Part shown: piece by piece, positions 1,285 through 17,206 of the stretch
Position numbering within the stretch: position 1 is the stretch's first letter
Layout of the letters: the number at the start of each line of letters is the position of its first letter
Source: Acidobacteriota bacterium
GTDB lineage: Bacteria > Acidobacteriota > Terriglobia > Terriglobales > Acidobacteriaceae
Direction: 5' to 3'
Length of the DNA stretch: 64,000 nt
Assembly (NCBI GenBank): GCA_003225175.1
Contig: QIBA01000056.1
Coordinates: forward strand, 23,790-87,789
Position numbers and translations under genes: made by a program
The notes under the pieces: model-generated
The model's database searches: none
Told to the model about the DNA's origin: nothing
What the model saw: the letters and a program-made list of their open reading frames with translations, nothing else

Positions 1285-1575
1285 ACGTCACGAAGTCAAA
1301 AGAAAAGGCCACAAAGAAAGCTTCGTGACCTCATCTGTTTCCTTCGTGAGCTTCGTGTTCGCTCCTGGTTTTGAAGTACTCAATCGCCTCCATGAGACAG
1401 GGCCGCCGTCCGCTCCAGCTTTTCCCAGGAAAACGCGCGGCCATCGATCGCGCGCTTGATGGTCTTGAACAGCACCACTGAGAACACCTGGCGGTAGGTG
1501 AAGCGCTGGATCCAGATGTCGGCGAGGAGCCAATAATCTTCGTGCTGGCGTGGATCGCGGCGTTCCAGGGCGAAG
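1285..1575. repeat. Direct repeat copy B (intact copy, continuous with the EPS synthase gene 3' end)
   Basis: Same alignment as copy A. This copy runs uninterrupted into the 1380..4820 reading frame. Confidence 0.8.
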
Positions 1576-4500
1576 GCTAGTGATGACGCGAGGAAATCGA
1601 TGATCAGGAAGCTGACGAAATAGATCACCAGCTTCTGGAAGGTTGCGGGATTGGCGGCGTAGGGATGGAAGTGGCGATCGATCAGATACCAGACTGCGCT
1701 TACGATGAACATTACATCGATCAGCGGCGAGACCAGTGGAAGCATGATCTGGAAGATGACGATGTTGGGGAGCGCGAACCAGCCTAGCGCGCCGCGGCGG
1801 AGCAAAGCTCCACGGTTTTTCCAGACGGCCTGGAGAATGCCGAACGACCAGCGGAAGCGTTGGCGCATCAGGCCGCGGGCGCTTACCGGGGCTTCGGTGT
1901 AGGCTAGCGCGCGGTCTTCGTAGATGACGCGGTAGCCGCTGCGCAGGATATTCATTGTGAGATCGGCGTCTTCGGCTACGGTGATGGCGTGATAGCCGCC
2001 GGCTTTCTTCACGATCTCGGTGCGCCATGCGCCCAGTGCGCCGGGGACGACCGTGACGGCGCCGAGCAGGTCGAGCGCGCGGCGCTCGAAGTTCTGGCTG
2101 GTGATGTACTCGAGAGCCTGCCAGCGCGTCCAGATATTCACGCGATTTCCCACTTTGGCATTGCCGGCTACGGCGCCGATGCTGCGATCGGCAAAATGCG
2201 GAATCAGGCGGGCGATGGCTTCGCGGGCGATTACCGTATCGGCGTCGATGCCGATGTAGAAATCTTCGGTCACCTGCTCGAGGCCGTAGTTCAGGGCTTC
2301 AGCTTTGCCGGAATTGGGCTTGGTGAGAACTACTACTTTCCCGGCGCTAATTTCATTTTGGAACTTGCTGGTGGCGATCTCGAGCGTCCGATCCTTCGAG
2401 CCGTCGTCAATGACGATCACGCGCAGGTTGCGATAGCTCGACGCCAGCACCGAGCGAATCGTGCGCTCGATGACTTTTTCTTCGTTATACGCGGGGATCA
2501 ACACTGCGACCGCCGGCCTGAAGGCGGGATCGAGGTTTTGCGACGACGAGCCCCGAATGCGGTCGATGGTGGCGAGCGCGCCAATAATAAGGAGGCGTCC
2601 GGTCATGAGGATGTCGCCGAGGAAGAAGATCATCTGCACGCCGATGAGGACGATGCTGAACATCCAGAAGGCCAGGTTATCGACGCGCGCTGCCCACACT
2701 TCGCGCGGCGTGGTGAGCGGCGGCATCACCTGGGCGCGGGTCTGGTCGATGAGTTTCGAAACGGGAACGATCTCGTAGCCGCGGGCGCGGATGCCGTCGA
2801 TGATCAGCGGGAGGGCTCTCACGGTCTGCGAGCGGTCTCCGCCGCCGTCGTGAAGAAGAATGATGTTGCCCTTGTCGAGATCTTTGAAGACGTTTTCGGC
2901 GATCTCGGCTGCGCTGTAACGCGGGCTTAGCGACCAGTCGCTGGGGTCGATCTTGTCGCCCACGGTGATGTATCCCATGTCCTGGGTGAGCTCGAGCGGC
3001 TTGACTTCGTCGGCGGTGTCGGGCTCCTGGTCGATCGAGTAGGGCGGGCGGAAGAAGATCGGCTTTACGCCGAGCTTCGCAGCGAATAAGCGCTCGGTAA
3101 CGTTGATTTCCTTTTCGAAACGCCACGTGGAGATTTCGCTGATGTTGGGATGCGTGAGCGTGTGGTTGCCGATCTCGTGGCCCTCGTCGTTGATGCGCTT
3201 TACCAATCCGGGATCGTTCTCGGAGGGAATGCCGATGAGGAAGAATGTGGCGGGCGCGTGCTTGCGCCTGAGTATGTCGAGTATCTGCGGGGTGTAGGTT
3301 GCGTCGGGACCATCGTCAAAGGTGATCGCGATCTTCTTCTCTTTATAACCGTAAGCTTCGAGTTGATAGGGATTCGGCAGCCTGGTGAAGTGCTCGTCGG
3401 TGACGAGTTCCGTATCGGGATCGACCGTCACCACGCGCTTGCCCGGCGAGGGACGCTGCATGATGCGCAGGATCTCGCCCTGTCCTTCGATGGAAACATC
3501 CGGACCAGGGGGAACTTCGGCGAGTTTGGTTGCGGGATCGGAGGCGCGAGGCTTGTCCCAGATCTCCCAAAGTGAACGATCTTCGGAGCCGAGGCGCCAC
3601 AGCGCAAATGTCCGGATGCCGAGATTGCGCGCGGCGCGCATTTGATTCAACGCGGTGACAGCGTCGAGAAACCAGATCTGATGCGTGGTGCCGTCATCTT
3701 CGTCATACGCGAAGTGGGGATTCAGTGAATCGGAATCGAGATCGATAGGCGTTTCGGATTCGGCGGAACGAATCCACGCATCCTGCACGGAGAGGTTGCA
3801 GACGTTGGAGTGAGTGCCTTCAGGACACTCGACCGGCTTGTTGCCCCACTCGTATCCGTAATTTCCGATGGCAACGATGAGTTTGTCTTTGGGAATAACT
3901 TTCAGCGCCTTCTGAATGTTGCCGACAAAGAAGCTGTGACTGGCGACCGGTCCGGCTTTGCTCTCCGACTGGTGCTCGTCGTAATTCATAAGGATGAGGC
4001 CATCGGAGTTGTCGGCGAGGTACTTGTAGTTGAAGTCGTCGTCATCGGCGGGGACGTTGATGTACATCTTCAGTCCGCGGGAGTGGAGGTCGGCGGCCAT
4101 CTCGCCAATTAGCGCGTTGAAGCCGGGCTGAGCGGTGCGGGGAAAGTCCTCAAAGTCGACGGAAACGCCCTTGAACTTGGCGTCGGAAGAGAGAAAAGTG
4201 AGCAGTTGATGGCGGAAATTTGCGCGTCCATCGGCGTTATCGAAGAAGTCTCCGACGTTGTGAAGCCATTTTCCCGAAACGGGATCAAAGTTATTGACCA
4301 GCGGAAAGACCTCGACGTCCGCCTTGGTTTGGCGAATTAGCGGCATCACCTGGTCGTCAACCTGGTGAATTGAAGTGCCGCTAACGACGTCGAACATCTC
4401 GTTTGTGAGCGCGTCGGAGCCTTGCATGCGTCCGTCGGGCGTCAAAACGTGCAGCCATTCGGGGTATAAAAGGTCGATTTGACGAAGATATTCCTTCAGT

Positions 4501-4820
4501 GAAGAGTAACTACCTTTGTCCCAGGTGACGTAAAAGGCTGCGCGTAAGCCTTCATCTTCGTTTAATGGAACCTGGGAAGGCGGCTTTTTGGTCTTGCGAT
4601 GCGATCCGTGAGCGGCTCCAGCATGCTTTTTAGTGTCGCGCACAGGCTTATAAGCGCGCTTGATTTCCGGCCAAATCGTCTGCGGTAAGGCTTCAGAACG
4701 CAGCGCTGTGTACATAAAAACGGCGGCGACAAGCGTTATTACGAGCCCGGAAAGGCGCAAAAGCAGGCGCAGATTACGCCATCGCTTGAGTTGTGGGTCG
4801 TAAAAAACCGGCTTGGCCAT
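1380..4820 (-). CDS. Multidomain exopolysaccharide synthase. N-terminal TM anchor, GH18-like (beta/alpha)8 domain, CE4 NodB-type polysaccharide deacetylase, TM segments, processive family-2 glycosyltransferase (PgaC/NodC/chitin-synthase-like) with C-terminal TM channel region
   Basis: CE4 motifs TFDDGP, GNHTLTHP, FFRPPY, IILLHDGGG. GT2 motifs VIVIDDGS, GIDADT, AEDADL, QRFRWSFG (QxxRW). N-terminal domain has YVTWD...SVDFEDF resembling the GH18 DxDxE region. Hydrophobic helices at N-terminus, between CE4 and GT2, and at C-terminus. Confidence 0.85.
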   Translation of the reverse strand: MAKPVFYDPQLKRWRNLRLLLRLSGLVITLVAAVFMYTALRSEALPQTIWPEIKRAYKPVRDTKKHAGAAHGSHRKTKKPPSQVPLNEDEGLRAAFYVTWDKGSYSSLKEYLRQIDLLYPEWLHVLTPDGRMQGSDALTNEMFDVVSGTSIHQVDDQVMPLIRQTKADVEVFPLVNNFDPVSGKWLHNVGDFFDNADGRANFRHQLLTFLSSDAKFKGVSVDFEDFPRTAQPGFNALIGEMAADLHSRGLKMYINVPADDDDFNYKYLADNSDGLILMNYDEHQSESKAGPVASHSFFVGNIQKALKVIPKDKLIVAIGNYGYEWGNKPVECPEGTHSNVCNLSVQDAWIRSAESETPIDLDSDSLNPHFAYDEDDGTTHQIWFLDAVTALNQMRAARNLGIRTFALWRLGSEDRSLWEIWDKPRASDPATKLAEVPPGPDVSIEGQGEILRIMQRPSPGKRVVTVDPDTELVTDEHFTRLPNPYQLEAYGYKEKKIAITFDDGPDATYTPQILDILRRKHAPATFFLIGIPSENDPGLVKRINDEGHEIGNHTLTHPNISEISTWRFEKEINVTERLFAAKLGVKPIFFRPPYSIDQEPDTADEVKPLELTQDMGYITVGDKIDPSDWSLSPRYSAAEIAENVFKDLDKGNIILLHDGGGDRSQTVRALPLIIDGIRARGYEIVPVSKLIDQTRAQVMPPLTTPREVWAARVDNLAFWMFSIVLIGVQMIFFLGDILMTGRLLIIGALATIDRIRGSSSQNLDPAFRPAVAVLIPAYNEEKVIERTIRSVLASSYRNLRVIVIDDGSKDRTLEIATSKFQNEISAGKVVVLTKPNSGKAEALNYGLEQVTEDFYIGIDADTVIAREAIARLIPHFADRSIGAVAGNAKVGNRVNIWTRWQALEYITSQNFERRALDLLGAVTVVPGALGAWRTEIVKKAGGYHAITVAEDADLTMNILRSGYRVIYEDRALAYTEAPVSARGLMRQRFRWSFGILQAVWKNRGALLRRGALGWFALPNIVIFQIMLPLVSPLIDVMFIVSAVWYLIDRHFHPYAANPATFQKLVIYFVSFLIIDFLASSLAFALERRDPRQHEDYWLLADIWIQRFTYRQVFSVVLFKTIKRAIDGRAFSWEKLERTAALSHGGD

Positions 4821-4914: not shown

Positions 4915-4953
4915 AAGCTTAGCAGCTTAGAGGCTTAGGAGCTTAGCAGCTTG
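4915..4953. repeat. Tandem 8-bp repeats containing GCTTAG (4.5 copies) running into the TTG start of the 4951 gene. Two inverted CTAAGC copies at 4842-4847 and 4858-4863 lie just upstream of the divergent EPS synthase start
   Basis: Read directly: aGCTTAGcaGCTTAGagGCTTAGgaGCTTAGcaGCTTg, and gCTAAGCttttcagcttCTAAGCg. Confidence 0.7.
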
Positions 4954-6330
4954 TTTTCGCGCAACAAACGGTACTTTTTAGTCCTTATTCTGCTGGGTTT
5001 AGCGCTGCGCGGATACTTCCTTCACTGGCATTTTCTCTTCCAGGGCGACTCATTAGTGTATGGCGATTTGGCCAAAAACTGGCTTCTACATGGCGTTTAT
5101 GGCGTCACGGACAGCGGGCAAGTGGTGCCGGTGGATATCCGAATGCCGGGATATCCAGCGTTTTTGGCGGCGATTTTCCGCTTATTTGGAGTTGAACACT
5201 ACGGCGCAGTAGTGCGGGTGCAGGTCGGAATCGACCTCTTTACGTGCTTTTTGATTGCGGCAGGAGCGCGCAGATTGTGGTCTGAGCGCGCGGGAAAAGT
5301 CGCTTTTGCGCTGGCGGCGCTGTGTCCATTTACCGCAAATTACGCCGCTACGCCTCTAGTAGAGACCTTAGCGATCTTTTCTGCGGCGTTTGCGCTGTTT
5401 TTTGCGCTGCGTGCAGTGCAGAAAATGCGCGCTGCGCCGTCCTGGGACGTCGCGCATTCGTTCGCGGTTGCCGACTGGATCCTTTCCGGATTGGGAATTG
5501 CAGTGAGTATTTATCTGCGTCCAGATGGCGGGCTACTGCTCCTAGCAATCGCTTTGTACCTTCTTTGGACGGCAATTTCGGCGCGGGAAATGGAATTTGT
5601 GTGGGTTGGCGTGCTGCTGGGAGTCGTTTCTTTGCTTCCATTGTTGCCTTGGACGCTGCGAAATTGGCGCACATTACAGCAAATCGAGCCATTAGCGCCC
5701 TTTTACGCGGAAATGCCGGGCGAATACGTGCCCAAAGGATTCAATCGCTGGACGAAAACCTGGATCGTCGACTTCATATCCGTCATGAATGTGTACTGGA
5801 ATGTGTCGGCGGAAGGTCCGGGAGAAGCGGTTGATATCAGCAATATCCCTGCTCGAACCTACGATAATCCAGCGCAAAAGCAGCGTACGGAGCAGCTTTT
5901 CGCTCAATACAATGAGGCTTTGACACTGAGTCCCGAAATGGATCGAGCTTTTGCCGAGCTTGCAGATACGCGTATTCGTGAGCGTCCCTTGCGATATTAC
6001 GTAGCGCTGCCGCTGGCAAGATTGGCGGATATGTGGCTGCGTCCGCGGACAGAGATGCTGAATCTGCAGCTTGATTGGTGGAACTGGGAGGATGTTCCGC
6101 AGGAATCAGCGATATCGGTGGCACTCGCGTTGCTGGACGTCTTCTACATCGTCGCCGCGTTGATGTCAGTGCGGCGCAAACTGCCGGGCTGCGGAATGTT
6201 ATGGATCTTGATCGTGTGCCGCTCAGCGCTGCTGGCGACACTTCCTAATCCTGAACCGCGGTACACGCTGGAGTGCTTTCCGGCTTTGCTGATGTTGGCG
6301 GGGGTCGGCTTGGCAAGAAAGACTGATTAA
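4951..6330 (+). CDS. Polytopic membrane glycosyltransferase, GT-C fold (ArnT/PMT, GT39/GT83-like)
   Basis: 459 aa with ~10 predicted TM helices and an N-terminal loop ...RGYFLHWHFLFQGDSLVYGDLAKNW... resembling the acidic first-loop motif of ArnT/PMT-type transferases. TTG start. Confidence 0.5.
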   Translation: MFSRNKRYFLVLILLGLALRGYFLHWHFLFQGDSLVYGDLAKNWLLHGVYGVTDSGQVVPVDIRMPGYPAFLAAIFRLFGVEHYGAVVRVQVGIDLFTCFLIAAGARRLWSERAGKVAFALAALCPFTANYAATPLVETLAIFSAAFALFFALRAVQKMRAAPSWDVAHSFAVADWILSGLGIAVSIYLRPDGGLLLLAIALYLLWTAISAREMEFVWVGVLLGVVSLLPLLPWTLRNWRTLQQIEPLAPFYAEMPGEYVPKGFNRWTKTWIVDFISVMNVYWNVSAEGPGEAVDISNIPARTYDNPAQKQRTEQLFAQYNEALTLSPEMDRAFAELADTRIRERPLRYYVALPLARLADMWLRPRTEMLNLQLDWWNWEDVPQESAISVALALLDVFYIVAALMSVRRKLPGCGMLWILIVCRSALLATLPNPEPRYTLECFPALLMLAGVGLARKTD

Positions 6331-6778: not shown

Positions 6779-7552
6779 TTACTTTCCTTTAACTGTCTTG
6801 ACGCTTCCAGAAGTATGCAACTTGAAAGCATCGTCAGGAACTTTGCCGTTCAGCTTGATATTGGTGTAGTGCGCAATGCGATAGTCGCCAGAAGGCTCCA
6901 AGAACTGCTGTTTCAATGAGATGCCGCGCGGCGCGTCAATCCAGATGACGATCTGGCTGAACATATTTTTGACGTTCGGCGCTTTCGGGGCCAGCTCCAG
7001 CTTGGCGGTTTTCACGCCATCCACATCTTCGTCACCGCCGAACTTCACGTCGAATTGCTTGAGCAGGTCGTGTCCGCCTCCTCCAAAGCCGAGTACTAGG
7101 AAGCTTTGAAACTGGTCGCGATTCTTGCCCGCGTCGTATTCGTTTATCTGCTGGATCCTTGGCTGATAGAGCCGAACCTTGCCGTCGGCGTAAAGTACAT
7201 ACTTCTGTTCCGGCGACTGAATGTTGGCCATCATTTGTGTGTCGCCTTTGCCGGTGCGCCGATAATAGACTTTCCCTTTCTGGGTATCGGTCTCGTTCAC
7301 GACTTTCTGGTATTGATCCCAAACAAAGTCCGCCTCTGCATTACGGAACTGTCCCGACGCCGTATCCATCTGCTTTAGCACAGTTTCAAGTCGAGAATTA
7401 TGGTCAGCCGCTCCGGCGCTCCTCGTTTGTGCGAAAGCAGGGAGACACGAAAGAATCGCAAGCATCAGAGTGCCCGCAAGCAGGATTTCGCGTAGGTGCG
7501 CCAGTGCTGTGCAGCAAAGATGAGTATGAACGGGATGACGCACGATGCGCAT
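6779..7552 (-). CDS. LolA-like outer-membrane lipoprotein carrier/sorting family protein (secreted)
   Basis: Signal-peptide-like MLAILSCLPAFAQ (true start probably internal, near 7465) followed by a LolA-fold-like beta-rich sequence. Confidence 0.55.
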   Translation of the reverse strand: MRIVRHPVHTHLCCTALAHLREILLAGTLMLAILSCLPAFAQTRSAGAADHNSRLETVLKQMDTASGQFRNAEADFVWDQYQKVVNETDTQKGKVYYRRTGKGDTQMMANIQSPEQKYVLYADGKVRLYQPRIQQINEYDAGKNRDQFQSFLVLGFGGGGHDLLKQFDVKFGGDEDVDGVKTAKLELAPKAPNVKNMFSQIVIWIDAPRGISLKQQFLEPSGDYRIAHYTNIKLNGKVPDDAFKLHTSGSVKTVKGK

Positions 7553-7602: not shown

Positions 7603-7899
7603 TTACAGGCGGCGTGCCCAGACCCGATAACCGGTGACCTTTCCCGAATTGTCGCGCAAGGCCTCGTAGCGCGTGATCTCAATGTTTCCGGCAATCGGCG
7701 TCAGGGTTTCCTGAAGCGCCTTTTGCGCATCGGATTCGCTGGCAGCGACGCCCGACGCGTTTAACTCATAGACAAAAGCATCAGGGCCGGTGGAGCGAAC
7801 AACAATCTCGTTGGGATGCAGGCGCAGATAGTTGGGGCTGTCCTTGAAGATACTGTGCGGGGTAAGAAAGATGAAGGCGAGGATGACAGTGACCATCAC
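7603..7899 (-). CDS. Hypothetical small membrane-anchored protein
   Basis: 98 aa with one N-terminal hydrophobic helix. No motif recognized. Confidence 0.35.
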   Translation of the reverse strand: MMVTVILAFIFLTPHSIFKDSPNYLRLHPNEIVVRSTGPDAFVYELNASGVAASESDAQKALQETLTPIAGNIEITRYEALRDNSGKVTGYRVWARRL

Positions 7900-8245
7900 G
7901 TCGTAGTGAAATCCGCCGCGCGGGTGTGTCCACAGAATGTAGCTCTTGATGGTCTGACCGGGAGTCAGGAGATGTTTCCTCTATGGATTAGTGTAGAACC
8001 GGGTAGCTGAGGCTGGCAATCCGGCAGAACTCTCAGACTCTCGTGCTCGAGCTAATCGCTCAAAGCCACTCGGCCAAACCTTTAAATCCAGCAGCGCGGG
8101 CCGAGGAATGAGCAGTGCTGCAGATATCTGCTTCGCTCCTTCTACTCTGGATTTTCCATGTCATTGGCCCAGTTTCGCGTGCTAAACTGGGACCCTTAGT
8201 TCCCGGCCCAGCCTTGTCTTGGAGCCCGGTCTCTTCGTCTAGCGA

Positions 8246-8737
8246 TTGAAAGTTTTTCTGATTTTCCTCTGGCCGGGAAAGCAGAATCGAATTGTGAAAC
8301 GCAAGAATGGCGGCAAGATCCTCGTCTCGATCTGCTGCGGAGTGTTAGTAGGTGCAGCTGTAGGAGCCATCCACTGGGCGATCGTTCCTCATGAACGTGA
8401 GCTGATAACGCACATCTTTCTTGCAGACCTGGTAGCGGCGCTGAGCACGATGATCGTTTGCCTGGCGATCCAGCTACGGCAGGAAGAAGTCCATTTCGCC
8501 AGCGCCATGTCGCGCGCCGCTATCGTTTCAGAATTGAACCACCACGTAAGAAATGCGGTATTTCCGCTGTGCCTCGCAGTGCAGAAGTCCGGGGACAAAG
8601 ACGCCTCTCAGCTCGCTAATGAAGCCGTAGAGCGCATTAACGTCGCCCTCAAAGAAGCGACGGCCGATGCCATTTCGGGACGCGCGAGCTACGCCGAAGA
8701 GGCGGGAGCGAAGAACGGGAGTCTGCTCATACACTGA
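8246..8737 (+). CDS. Small membrane protein with a HisKA-like (DHp) H-box but no ATPase domain
   Basis: Two TM helices, then AAIVSELNHHVRNAVFPL resembling the xxSHELRNPL phospho-acceptor box. The protein ends ~60 aa later, with no HATPase_c. Stop overlaps the start of the next gene (ATGA). Confidence 0.5.
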   Translation: MKVFLIFLWPGKQNRIVKRKNGGKILVSICCGVLVGAAVGAIHWAIVPHERELITHIFLADLVAALSTMIVCLAIQLRQEEVHFASAMSRAAIVSELNHHVRNAVFPLCLAVQKSGDKDASQLANEAVERINVALKEATADAISGRASYAEEAGAKNGSLLIH

Positions 8738-9147
8738 TGTTTCGTGCCCTTGTAGTCGACGACGAATCTTCAATTTTGGGGCTTCTCAGAACCGTTCTGG
8801 AACTCGCCGCGTTCCATGTTGAAACTGCTACTTCCGCCAAACTAGCGACTACGCTCCTTGCTCAAGACAGCTTCGAAGTCGTTCTTACCGACATCCGAAT
8901 GGAGACTCCGACGGCAGGCTTCGATGTGATTCGAGCGGCTCGCAAGCTTCAATCCCGGCCTGCGATCGCAATCCTCACCGCGCATCCAATCTCACCTGCT
9001 GAATGGAAACCTTCCGGAGCAGATGCACTTTTCATAAAAGGCAGCGATCTGATCAATCTTCCCGACAAGCTAAAGACGCTGATGAAGCAACGGGCGCAAA
9101 GGGAGACAGCTTCAGAACCTGTTCTGCGGCGCTCCGTGAATCAATAG
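8737..9147 (+). CDS. Single-domain response regulator (CheY-like receiver)
   Basis: VVDDE acidic pocket, phospho-acceptor D in VVLTDIRM, T in ILTAH, K in FIKG. No output domain. Confidence 0.85.
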   Translation: MFRALVVDDESSILGLLRTVLELAAFHVETATSAKLATTLLAQDSFEVVLTDIRMETPTAGFDVIRAARKLQSRPAIAILTAHPISPAEWKPSGADALFIKGSDLINLPDKLKTLMKQRAQRETASEPVLRRSVNQ

Positions 9148-9206
9148 ACTTTCCAAGCAAGCATTTGTGGCGCGGCGGCTTCGGCTGTGGATGCCATTCG
9201 CGCATT

Positions 9207-10508
<1,302 letters not shown>

Positions 10509-10595
10509 TCAAGTTTGGTCAGGAGGACTGGGGACTCGGGTGATCGGGCCATCGGGTGCCCGATCACCCGATTCTTAATTTACAATTCGCTCGCA

Positions 10596-12245
10596 ATGAA
10601 ATCTCGATCTCGTCTTTTCCTGGCTCTCAGCTTCTTCCTAATCGCTCCCGCCTTTGGCTCCGCCTATCAGAATCGTCCCAAACTGATCGTAATAATCATC
10701 ATCGATCAATTCCGCGGCGACTATCTCGAACGCTACTACAATCGCTTTGGCGAAGGCGGCTTCCGCCTGCTGATGGATCACGGCGCCAATTTCACTGACT
10801 GCCACTATGACTACGCAAATACCCACACCGCTCCTGGACATGCAACCTTGTTTACCGGAGCGTACTCGGATGGACATGGCATTGGCGGGAACGAGTGGTG
10901 GGATCCGGCGCTGCGCAAAGTCGTAACCTCGGTCGAAGACAGTCGTTACCAGACGCTTAAGCCCGGTGGATCAAACGAGACCGGAGTCTCGCCGCATAAT
11001 TTGCTTGCCGACACAATCGGCGACGAGCTGCGACTCGCCACTGCTGGGAAGTCGCGTGTCTTCGGAATTTCGCTCAAAGACCGCGCCGCTGTTCTTCCTG
11101 CCGGCTACTCCGGCAGCGCCGCCTATTGGATTGATCACGAAGATGGCGCTTGGGTGAGTTCGAGCTACTACATGAAGTCTCTGCCACCGTGGATTGTGGC
11201 ATTCGAAGCGAGCGGCCCAACCAAAAAATATTTAGATAAAGAGTGGAAGGGAGCAGATGGTTCGGTTCTCGACAGCACTGCGCCCGCCATGAACGCTGCC
11301 GGACAACGACTCGGATTTTACGATCTGGTGGGCAAGACTCCGTTTGCCAACGATTATGAGTTCGACTTCGCCAAAGAACTTATCCGGCAGGAAAAGCTGG
11401 GCAGTGGATCGACGACGGATTTCTTGAGCGTCAGTTTGTCGGCAAACGATATCCTTGGACATCGCGTAGGACCTGACAGTCCCAAAATGGAAGCGATGGC
11501 TCTGGCGCTTGATCGCGAACTGGCTGAGTTCTTCGCGTTTCTCAAGCAGCAGGTAGGCCTCGAAAACGTTTGGATCGCTCTCTCCGCTGATCATGGCATC
11601 GCGCCGCTTGTGGAAAGCGCACAGACAATGCATGTTCCGGCAGCACGGCTGAACTCAGCCGGCATGGCTCAGGAAATTAATTTGAAACTGGCAGAGCGGT
11701 TTCCTCAAGCCACAGGCGGACCACGCTGTTTGCGACCTGAAGACGCCAAGCTCTGGCATCGCGAGAACACGCCGGACTTCGTAGCATCAATAAGCTGGCC
11801 GATTGCTTATCTTTGCAAAGACGATTTCGACGCTCTAAAGATCAATGAAGCGCAAGCCGAGCAAACAGTGGGCGAGGTTTTCAAGCAGCTCGGCTCCTTG
11901 CCGGCCGTTTATACACGGACGCAGCTCACGGAGGGCGCGGTCCCTCAGACCTCTTATGGGAAGCAGTACCTGCACAGTCGCGCAGAATACGGCGGGTGGT
12001 ATGTATTAGGCGAGCTGCCGCCCTTCGTCGTAGGCAACGCCACCGGGACTGACCACTCTACGCCTTACAGCTACGACACTCATGTCCCACTCGCGTTCTA
12101 CGGCACTCCCTTCAAGCCGGGAACATATCGTTCCCATGCGGAACCAGTGGACATGGTTTCGACGTTTAGCACGCTGCTCGGCATCGAGCGGCCGACGCAC
12201 TCGATTGGTAGAGTGCTCACGGAGGCCCTGAGCACGTCGCGATGA
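10596..12245 (+). CDS. Alkaline-phosphatase-superfamily (type I phosphodiesterase/nucleotide pyrophosphatase-like) secreted protein
   Basis: Signal peptide MKSRSRLFLALSFFLIAPAFG, then IIIIDQFRGDYL...HYDYANTHTAPGHATLFTG metal-site motifs. Start chosen at ATG 10596 (the listed ORF extends to 10464, overlapping serS). Confidence 0.7.
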   Translation: MKSRSRLFLALSFFLIAPAFGSAYQNRPKLIVIIIIDQFRGDYLERYYNRFGEGGFRLLMDHGANFTDCHYDYANTHTAPGHATLFTGAYSDGHGIGGNEWWDPALRKVVTSVEDSRYQTLKPGGSNETGVSPHNLLADTIGDELRLATAGKSRVFGISLKDRAAVLPAGYSGSAAYWIDHEDGAWVSSSYYMKSLPPWIVAFEASGPTKKYLDKEWKGADGSVLDSTAPAMNAAGQRLGFYDLVGKTPFANDYEFDFAKELIRQEKLGSGSTTDFLSVSLSANDILGHRVGPDSPKMEAMALALDRELAEFFAFLKQQVGLENVWIALSADHGIAPLVESAQTMHVPAARLNSAGMAQEINLKLAERFPQATGGPRCLRPEDAKLWHRENTPDFVASISWPIAYLCKDDFDALKINEAQAEQTVGEVFKQLGSLPAVYTRTQLTEGAVPQTSYGKQYLHSRAEYGGWYVLGELPPFVVGNATGTDHSTPYSYDTHVPLAFYGTPFKPGTYRSHAEPVDMVSTFSTLLGIERPTHSIGRVLTEALSTSR

Positions 12246-13617: not shown

Positions 13618-13693
<76 letters not shown>

Positions 13694-13767: not shown

Positions 13768-13842
13768 GGCGCGGTACCCAAGTGGTAAGGGAGAGGTCTG
13801 CAAAACCTTTATGCGTCGGTTCGATTCCGACCCGCGCCTCCA
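13768..13842 (+). tRNA. tRNA-Cys (anticodon GCA), CCA encoded
   Basis: Acceptor ggcgcgg/ccgcgcc, anticodon loop cTGCAaa, T-loop gttcgattc. Confidence 0.85.
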
Positions 13843-16844: not shown

Positions 16845-17206
16845 AATGATAGAGACACAGCATGCCGCAGGCTTGTCTCAATCTCCGTTTTTTAGTTCGC
16901 GAATTTGGACAGCTCTGCCCGCCAGACTCAGGACCAATACCATGTCTCTGCGCTGGAGACGGGCAATGTGAAACCGAGGACACCGTCCTGGGTACGCCGT
17001 TGGCAAATAGGGAGCCCTGGGAAGCGGCACTGTTTGGGGACGAAACCAATGCCGTGCCTCCGGCACTCCGATCTTTCCTTTTCGACCCAGCAGTTCGTGC
17101 TGGGCTTTCTCATACCGTCGCTCCGCGACTCTTGGGCTGGATAGTCAAACCAGCCTTTGCGCCACAAACAGCGATGCAGCGTGCTGCGTCTCTGCCGAAT
17201 GAACAC

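Follow-up and report, generated by a model that had tools for sequence, protein, structure and literature searches.

The 64-kb window analysed here (the whole stretch of 64,000 nucleotides, position 1 being its first letter) contains two adjoining genes, A and B, which together are probably a kinase-less phosphorelay leg of soil Acidobacteria. Gene A is predicted to encode a small membrane protein carrying the DHp helical hairpin of a histidine kinase, and gene B encodes a single-domain response regulator. We regard it as highly likely that gene A is a DHp-only membrane protein with a cognate receiver and without kinase activity of its own and, more tentatively, lean towards a role as a His-phosphotransferase of the Spo0B/ChpT/PhyT kind over that of a pure phosphatase. 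Judged by sequence comparison, A and B constitute a real, conserved and previously unannotated module, with gene A belonging to a large phylum-specific family.

A search of 5.8 billion clustered proteins returned 464 relatives of gene A, the best 120 of which are 119–192 aa long (mostly ~148 aa) and nearly all "hypothetical" or unnamed, none having a precomputed Pfam domain. When 1.84 billion representatives were searched exhaustively with a profile, 159 clusters came up, and a profile of the close subfamily reached, near full length and with library-wide E-values of 1e-10 to 1e-4, distant small membrane proteins that share the core A-E-[ML]-N-H-H-[IV]-R-N-A-L ... R-I-[DE]-W-A-L-R-E. At least 375 gene A-family loci were found in a scan of one genome per species; 79 of the 80 best loci come from Acidobacteriota or Terriglobia metagenome-assembled genomes (MAGs), and the family appears to be restricted to Acidobacteriota, almost all of them Terriglobia.

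The evidence that gene A contains a DHp hairpin comes from this family. The motif IVSELNHHVRNAV lies at 8522–8560, and gene A ends 64 residues past its central His, H83 (codon 8540–8542; residues are counted from the GTG codon at 8294); the codon at the H+4 position, N87, is 8552–8554. Across 118 family representatives, whose mean column identity is only 16%, the residues kept in the H-box are N82 (114 representatives), H83 (115), H84 (106), R86 (113), N87 (112) and A88 (111), and those kept in the second helix of the hairpin are R114 (113), I115 (109) and L119 (114). Of the canonical H-E/D-x-x-T/N motif, the family motif E-[LM]-N-H-H-[IV]-R-N-A-[LV] has one half, the Asn at H+4 (112/118), and lacks the other, the acid at H+1, where His stands in 106 of the 118 and Glu in only 5. 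Pfam HisKA was matched at an E-value of 1 or less by 72 of the 118 representatives (best E-value 4e-6), followed by HisKA_2 with 19 and the next family with 13, single members covering HisKA profile positions 2–59 of 66. When the family was aligned by hhalign with the DHp domains of eight real kinases (HisKA+HATPase kinases taken from the fetched loci), both helices were matched over 50 columns with a probability of 95.1% and an E-value of 3.4e-8, and the subfamily of the window alone aligned in the same register (P 0.005). The best match of the family profile among Protein Data Bank (PDB) sequences was histidine kinase 8u4x (E-value 0.21), with NHhiRNAL lying over SHDLRNPM, and a home-made kinase-core hidden Markov model (HMM) run on the six-frame translation converged on this helix with the register unchanged. 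In all four alignments (family hhalign, subfamily hhalign, 8u4x and kinase-core HMM) H83 falls on the phospho-accepting His. The H-box reading of the preliminary description of this DNA, which had been made from the letters alone, was thus borne out at the level of the family. We conclude that the hairpin of gene A appears homologous to the DHp domain of the HisKA clan by family-level comparison, not by the curated single-sequence criterion, and that H83 is the predicted phospho-acceptor.

No ATPase domain accompanies the hairpin. A maximum-sensitivity search with the home-made kinase-core HMM found no CA/HATPase remnant in any frame of 7900–10600, and the same model found no histidine-kinase core (DHp + ATPase) in the window. 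At 87 related loci there was no CA domain either, the longest open reading frame (ORF) being ~250 aa, and among the best 150 of the 159 representatives there was neither a CA domain nor a full-length kinase relative; nearly all of these proteins are 120–220 aa long, the exceptions being one of 409 aa and one of 280 aa. The 409-aa entry (P0176) consists of seven near-identical, low-complexity repeats of ~52 aa containing "VIQLNNHVQNRLYY" and probably reflects repetitive DNA translated spuriously, not a relative. The preliminary description was right that HATPase_c is absent, in this copy and, as it turned out, in every relative examined. Its term "truncated" does not fit, as the short form is the norm of the family, and neither of the two outcomes that it had envisaged, orthologues with a full CA domain or a frameshifted CA domain downstream, was found. 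Gene A seems to keep the regulator-facing parts of a kinase without the ATP-facing parts; we file it, from its sequence, as not a kinase because the CA domain is absent, and it also failed on the curated HisKA score and on the acid at H+1.

The partner, gene B, passes the Pfam Response_reg model (PF00072) with an E-value of 8.5e-14 and 52.1 bits against a gathering cut-off of 30.2. Among 17 orthologues of gene B, the invariant residues are D9, T51, D52, M55, E56, P75, A82, P84, G94, K101 and G102, with Thr or Ser at position 81; the C-terminal tail of ~30 aa is poorly conserved. The preliminary description had called gene B a canonical receiver. This holds for the phosphorylation site, in which the acidic pair, the Asp, the Thr and the Lys are all present, but not for its surroundings: K101 is followed by an invariant Gly rather than forming K-P, the loop that follows the Asp has TD[IML][RK]ME in place of "D..MP", the α4 region is short and proline-rich ("PISPAEWKPSG") and the Pfam alignment is limited to residues 5–85. 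Gene B is predicted to be phosphorylatable and is the sole receiver domain in the window. Further, it has Arg/Lys at D+2 and Phe/Tyr/His at T+2, which resembles the Lys/Tyr pair of Spo0F; work from the Bourret laboratory is said to associate that pair with a long-lived phospho-aspartate, which we take as a lead and not as a result.

Genes A and B are kept together. Their TGATG stop/start overlap recurs at three related loci (L007, L001 and L003), and the spacing from A to B across the clade of the window is −4 to +28 nt. The overlap implies that the two genes would be translationally coupled, as the preliminary description had proposed. Within this clade, a B-type receiver of 124–147 aa lies directly 3′ of A at every locus with sequence available, and the pairing is seen in at least three unrelated neighborhoods, the flanking genes differing between loci. 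The reverse test gave the same picture: at all 19 metagenome loci whose receiver shares 49% or more identity with B, an A gene ends 0–45 nt upstream. In all, B-like sequences number more than 563. The codons that differ between the window and L007 (a 92% identical relative) are 62 synonymous and 11 non-synonymous ones in gene A, which points to strong purifying selection, and 45 and 32 in gene B; 69 blocks of metagenome assemblies encode a protein identical to that of gene B. The pair is far beyond chance because of the 464 homologues of A, the codon differences in A and the 69 metagenome blocks with B. At the level of sequence, it is well supported that Terriglobia (Acidobacteriota) possess A and B as a self-contained cassette of two genes. 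DHp helix α1 is almost invariant within the paired clade, so that it can carry no signal of covariation between the specificity residues of A and B.

The coordinates of the cassette are collected in Table 1. The longest open frame for gene A runs on the + strand from TTG 8246 to 8737 (163 codons), and this length was adopted in the preliminary description. However, GTG 8294 is most likely the true start, giving 147 aa instead of 163, because homologues of gene A are 142–148 aa long with aligned N-termini at the position of GTG 8294, because L007 has a GTG start at the same codon (reading GTG-KRKNGGK) and because independent gene calls on metagenome contigs with an identical operon give gene A 147 aa; the TTG 8246 start is probably an over-extension. 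An AlphaFold2 (AF2) model of gene A (monomer, 29 homologues, mean predicted local distance difference test score (pLDDT) 66.9) consists of four helices, the last two of which form an antiparallel hairpin with a 3-residue turn, a pLDDT of ~70–75 and the His in the first of them; beyond residue 132 the pLDDT is <50, and residues 129–147 form a disordered tail of ~19 residues. The two transmembrane (TM) helices that the preliminary description had noticed are upheld by two hydropathy peaks and by the first two AF2 helices. TM helix 1 is preceded by the basic N-terminus MKRKNGGK; this and the inter-TM loop of ~7 residues would place the N-terminus inside and gene A's C-terminal half in the cytoplasm by the positive-inside rule. 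TM helix 2 continues into a conserved juxtamembrane QLRQEEVH (to residue 67) and then into DHp α1, with no HAMP or other linker domain in between. Invariant in the alignment of gene A are D45, A48, L50, L57, Q60, L61, E64, E65 and H67, and the nearly invariant H27 (codon 8372–8374) and H40 (8411–8413) flank the 7-residue outer loop, in which H33 (8390–8392) is located. The subfamily of the window also has a conserved Cys in TM helix 2 (C56, 8459–8461) and another in DHp α1 (C93, 8570–8572). It is purely speculative that H27, H33, H40, C56 and C93 are candidate input sites for pH, metal or redox signals.

Table 1. Features of the gene A–gene B cassette, in window coordinates
Feature	Coordinates	Strand	Description and basis
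Gene A	8294..8737	+	Predicted 147-aa membrane-anchored DHp-only protein; start GTG 8294
TM helix 1	8318..8386	+	Residues ~9–31; hydropathy peak ~18, AF2 helix 6–30
Outside loop	8387..8407	+	Residues 32–38, PHERELI; alignment and AF2 helix break at 31–34
TM helix 2	8408..8476	+	Residues ~39–61; hydropathy peak ~51, AF2 helix 35–65
DHp helix α1	8504..8587	+	Residues 71–98; AF2 helix 71–98, aligns to α1 of the HisKA DHp of real kinases
H-box N82-H83-H84-V85-R86-N87-A88	8537..8557	+	Conservation in 118 representatives and kinase alignments
DHp helix α2	8597..8677	+	Residues 102–128; AF2 helix 102–128, aligns to α2 of kinase DHp
TGATG stop/start overlap	8735..8739	+	Gene A TGA 8735–8737, gene B ATG 8737–8739
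Gene B	8737..9147	+	136-aa single-domain response regulator; Pfam PF00072
Gene B active-site codons	D8/D9 8758–8763; D52 8890–8892; T81 8977–8979; K101 9037–9039	+	Alignments

A role in dephosphorylation, in phosphotransfer or as a phosphate sink seems the natural reading of such a pair. We propose that two copies of gene A would pair by their hairpins, building a four-helix bundle at the membrane's inner face, and would dock gene B as the DHp domains of kinases dock their regulators. Because gene A could not load itself from ATP, its chemistry would be confined to phospho-aspartate: the phosphoryl group would move reversibly between Asp-52 of B and His-83 of A and/or be hydrolyzed, with Asn-87 positioning the water. 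The pair would then be a phosphorelay leg without a kinase, fed by an unlinked kinase, by the receiver of a hybrid kinase or by acetyl phosphate, and the TM hairpin, which is joined straight to DHp α1, could gate the reaction. In either case gene A would set the phosphorylation state of gene B. Translational coupling would keep the amounts of A and B in a fixed ratio, and B would signal through protein–protein contact, since it has no output domain. To our knowledge, the characterized kinase-derived proteins of this type (Spo0B, ChpT and PhyT) are all transferases. In HisKA kinases, the acid at H+1 is required only for autophosphorylation and the Thr/Asn at H+4 only for phosphatase activity (PMC3510030), and transfer is abolished when the His is mutated, whereas the phosphatase reaction, which the His only enhances, persists (PMC7005713). 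We favor transfer because H83 is invariant while the loss of such a His abolishes transfer and not phosphatase activity.

Several observations weigh against this proposal. The preliminary description had suggested an HMM search of the single protein, and here gene A alone gave no match at an E-value of 10 or less to Pfam HisKA, HisKA_2, HisKA_3 or HWE_HK, and against Pfam/NCBIfam as a whole gave noise only (DUF6194 and Na_H_Exchanger, E-values >0.01), so that the family-level analysis was needed. Even the top HisKA score of any member tested, 25.9 bits, lies below the gathering cut-off of 26.9, which explains why the family has been left unannotated. Structure-based searches were uninformative: the close-subfamily profile found only Pendrin (E-value 7) among PDB sequences, Foldseek of the gene A model found nothing in the PDB at an E-value <0.001 and only ferritin/Dps-like bundles, and other fold searches with the monomer model returned generic helical bundles or hairpins only; the model itself is of medium confidence, as its mean pLDDT indicates. 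Further, dimerization, A–B binding and the chemistry of the pair are things that we infer from sequence, the window contains no linked donor kinase, hybrid kinase or second regulator, and N87 is a residue that is phosphatase-specific in HisKA kinases. The wider family adds to these points. The 10 loci of a sister clade of A have neither a conserved neighbor nor an adjacent receiver. In a distant branch, A is directly followed downstream by a receiver-like gene of 114 aa at ~24 of 56 loci. Its product passes PF00072 (E-value 9e-13), but E-[NH] replaces the acidic pair, Glu occupies the phospho-acceptor position, Ala or Gly stands where the Thr would be and Lys-Pro is missing. It is a pseudo-receiver, so that family members need not act on their neighbor by phosphotransfer. 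The same receiver-like neighbors suggest that the partnership between DHp and receiver is older than the clade of the window.

The alternative closest to our proposal is that gene A is a dedicated, signal-gated phosphatase that only speeds the hydrolysis of phosphorylated gene B (B~P), with Asn-87 activating the water, His-83 assisting and no stable phospho-His, and that it drains a receiver phosphorylated by unlinked kinases or acetyl phosphate. We consider this possible but rather unlikely. The near-invariant N87 (112/118) at the phosphatase-specific H+4 position argues for it, as do a self-contained cassette to which no second regulator is linked and the behavior of the isolated DHp of HK853, which dimerizes, binds RR468 1:1 and dephosphorylates it, an activity that the H260A substitution lowers (PMC5727384). 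Yet H83 is as conserved as N87 (115/118), though HisKA kinases can do without the His in the phosphatase reaction, and PhyT, which was first assumed to be a phosphatase and retains HRxxN with its Asn, showed transfer and no detectable phosphatase activity (PMC5898713). In HK853 and EnvZ, the phosphatase reaction is stimulated by the CA domain with ADP (PMC7005713), and a phosphatase without a CA domain might therefore be weak. A split histidine kinase, in which A would be phosphorylated in trans by a CA domain encoded elsewhere and would then phosphorylate B, strikes us as improbable. Rv0600c/Rv0601c/TcrA of Mycobacterium tuberculosis is reportedly described as a split kinase in the primary literature; a review lists the three genes as two sensor kinases and one regulator only. 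The conserved His and a cognate-like, co-transcribed receiver would suit such an arrangement, being as in an ordinary kinase–regulator operon, but there is no CA gene adjacent to A in the window or at the 87 loci and none in the rest of the 64 kb, although one could lie elsewhere in the genome; A has no conserved neighbor besides the receiver, and the H+1 acid that would activate the His toward ATP is replaced by His (106/118).

It would be equally surprising if gene A were a non-catalytic tether or decoy that binds B, or the DHp domain of a real kinase, at the membrane and so sequesters or blocks it, the His having no chemical role. PhyT likewise sequesters its regulator at the membrane (PMC5898713), and the degenerate active sites and Glu phospho-sites of the distant-branch neighbors point to binding without transfer somewhere in the family; the near-invariance of N82, H83, R86 and N87 in a family of such low mean column identity is difficult to reconcile with a protein that only binds. 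That A is the decayed remnant of a kinase whose 3′ half was lost in this genome can be practically dismissed. Its superficial look of a "truncated" kinase is all that speaks for this, whereas the same length and architecture recur in hundreds of relatives, the codon differences from L007 indicate strong purifying selection, no frame holds a CA remnant and the stop/start overlap is conserved. Truncation or frameshift of a kinase was accordingly rejected on the uniform family length, the missing CA remnant and the purifying selection. A broader reading, which goes beyond the phosphorelay leg that we prefer for A and B, is doubtful: the family could be one of Acidobacteria-specific membrane half-kinases that serve as intramembrane-gated phosphotransfer hubs in place of Hpt, relaying from many orphan or hybrid kinases to small receivers, with some branches having become phosphorylation-independent pairs of DHp and pseudo-receiver (Asp to Glu) and with the five His and Cys residues named above conferring sensitivity to pH, metal or redox state. 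Of the known auxiliary aspartyl-phosphate phosphatases, gene A had no Pfam/NCBIfam match to Spo0E, CheZ, CheX/CheC or Rap, and none of these was in the top 25 families of the 118 members.

The preliminary description had placed the pair next to an exopolysaccharide locus and suggested that it may regulate it. The window does encode a 1146-aa protein at 1380–4820 (−), in which a polysaccharide deacetylase is fused to a family-2 glycosyltransferase (GT2), and a PMT_2-type glycosyltransferase at 4951–6330 (+), but these genes adjoin the cassette only in the closest relatives. The cassette stands in unrelated neighborhoods at L003/L004 and L005/L006, and other family members adjoin CstA, a mechanosensitive channel, glutamine synthetase and further unrelated genes. 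Control of the adjacent polysaccharide genes was rejected as a candidate function, the adjacency not being conserved beyond the closest relatives. Divergently upstream of gene A lie a gene for a LolA-like protein (6779–7552, −) and one for a predicted membrane protein of 97–98 aa without a Pfam match (7603–7899, −), both of which are kept upstream in L001/L002 and L167–L169 and not in more distant members; directly downstream, gene B is followed by a convergent serS. A promoter and terminator scan of 7850–9300 gave counts equal to those of shuffled controls, no Rfam RNA family was found near the A–B operon and blastn against plasmids gave no match. Elsewhere, the window has a match to the Acido-Lenti-1 small RNA at 17086–17130 (+; score 38.5 bits, threshold 37), and tRNA genes are located at 13618–13689 and 13768–13839 (both +). 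The small-RNA match and the occurrence of the exact gene B protein in metagenome assemblies both fit an acidobacterial origin.

We note some further features of the family. The distant-branch relatives of A have the core RMQVIAEMNHHIRNAL...RIDWALREILPRE (e.g. L036:1818–2162, L041:4390–4755, L051:1307–1651, L059:4446–4790 and ~20 more loci). At 33 loci (L035:3245–3583 and 32 others), the distant-branch A is preceded, ~270 nt upstream and on its own strand, by a conserved ORF of ~112–115 aa without a Pfam match, which may be the third gene of the cassette there. Paralogues of the A family exist within one genome, since a MAG contig (L014:2634–3065 and 3108–3515) carries a second, divergent member, followed by a 135-aa ORF without a Pfam match, ~900 nt upstream of the A–B pair, and since MAG palsa_280 has two members on different contigs (L036 and L051). 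A separate, syntenic orphan single-domain regulator, more distant from B, was seen at 38 metagenome loci (L106, L111 and L117–L166; e.g. L161:2430–2879). It has the TDMRME loop as in gene B but a normal K-P, and its vicinity always includes a MiaB-like radical-SAM gene together with infC (IF-3) and a small gene for a zinc ribbon, with no A and no kinase nearby.

Acidobacteria are among the most abundant bacteria of soil, and their signaling has barely been studied. The pairing of kinases with regulators from genome sequences misses proteins of the A type, which are called "hypothetical", score just short of the HisKA threshold and lack an ATPase domain; the family would alter how the wiring of orphan single-domain receivers and of orphan and hybrid kinases in acidobacterial genomes is viewed. 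Hundreds of proteins that keep only the regulator-facing chemistry would also offer a natural minimal system in which to separate His–Asp transfer and phosphatase activity from autophosphorylation. The practical yield is modest: annotation would gain a new family model, and biochemistry a target that is small and tractable. No principle is overturned, since kinase-derived transferases and DHp-only fragments made in the laboratory are already known, and the concept of the A–B module has precedents.

A literature search on DHp-only proteins and split histidine kinases turned up nothing relevant, and the nearest systems are the following. In its N-terminal design gene A resembles the intramembrane-sensing kinases of the LiaS/BceS type, which have two TM helices, an outer loop too short for a ligand and direct coupling to the transmitter; those kinases are complete, with an ATPase domain. 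Spo0B of Bacillus and ChpT of Caulobacter are kinase-derived, dimeric four-helix bundles that do not autophosphorylate and relay phosphate through a His between receivers, Spo0B receiving it from the single-domain regulator Spo0F. Both are soluble, each with a C-terminal pseudo-ATPase α/β domain. Unlike Spo0B, ChpT and PhyT, gene A has no C-terminal pseudo-ATPase domain, has a minimal TM hairpin as its anchor, is encoded alongside its receiver and belongs to Acidobacteriota only, and the Spo0B/ChpT Pfam models were not among the 25 families most matched by the 118 members. ChpT and Spo0B have been named as degenerate kinases (PMC5898713), and the closest catalogue class for A is the incomplete histidine kinase (iHK) category of P2CS, defined by the lack of a HisKA or HATPase domain (bioRxiv 10.64898/2026.02.27.708494), which is a bookkeeping category and not a characterized family. 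The A family would be missed by the iHK listing because no member reaches the HisKA gathering score. Structurally closest are the DHp fragments of HK853 and EnvZ; the latter, an isolated fragment called "domain A", was reportedly described by Zhu et al. in PNAS in 2000. HK853-DHp (PMC5727384) is a minimal two-helix His hairpin as in A. Both fragments were engineered from complete kinases and have an acid at H+1, whereas gene A is natural, membrane-anchored and has His at H+1.

In function, the closest known system is PhyT (formerly PhyP)/SdrG of Sphingomonas melonis, in which PhyT, a membrane kinase-like protein with no working ATPase, shuttles phosphate from SdrG to PhyR through its His (PMC5898713). 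PhyT is far larger than A, with its His at position 341; besides a predicted sensor domain in the periplasm, it "harbors a degenerated ATPase domain", whereas A has 147 aa here and no ATPase remnant. The DHp of PhyT is of the HWE/HisKA_2 type (HRxxN), and the A family scores best with HisKA; the phyT gene adjoins that of the terminal regulator PhyR and not that of SdrG, whereas A is encoded with its own receiver; and PhyT is alphaproteobacterial, the A family acidobacterial. Both are membrane-anchored, kinase-like non-kinases with a conserved His and an Asn at H+4, and PhyT exchanges phosphate with a single-domain regulator, as we propose that gene A may do with gene B, and also tethers a regulator at the membrane.

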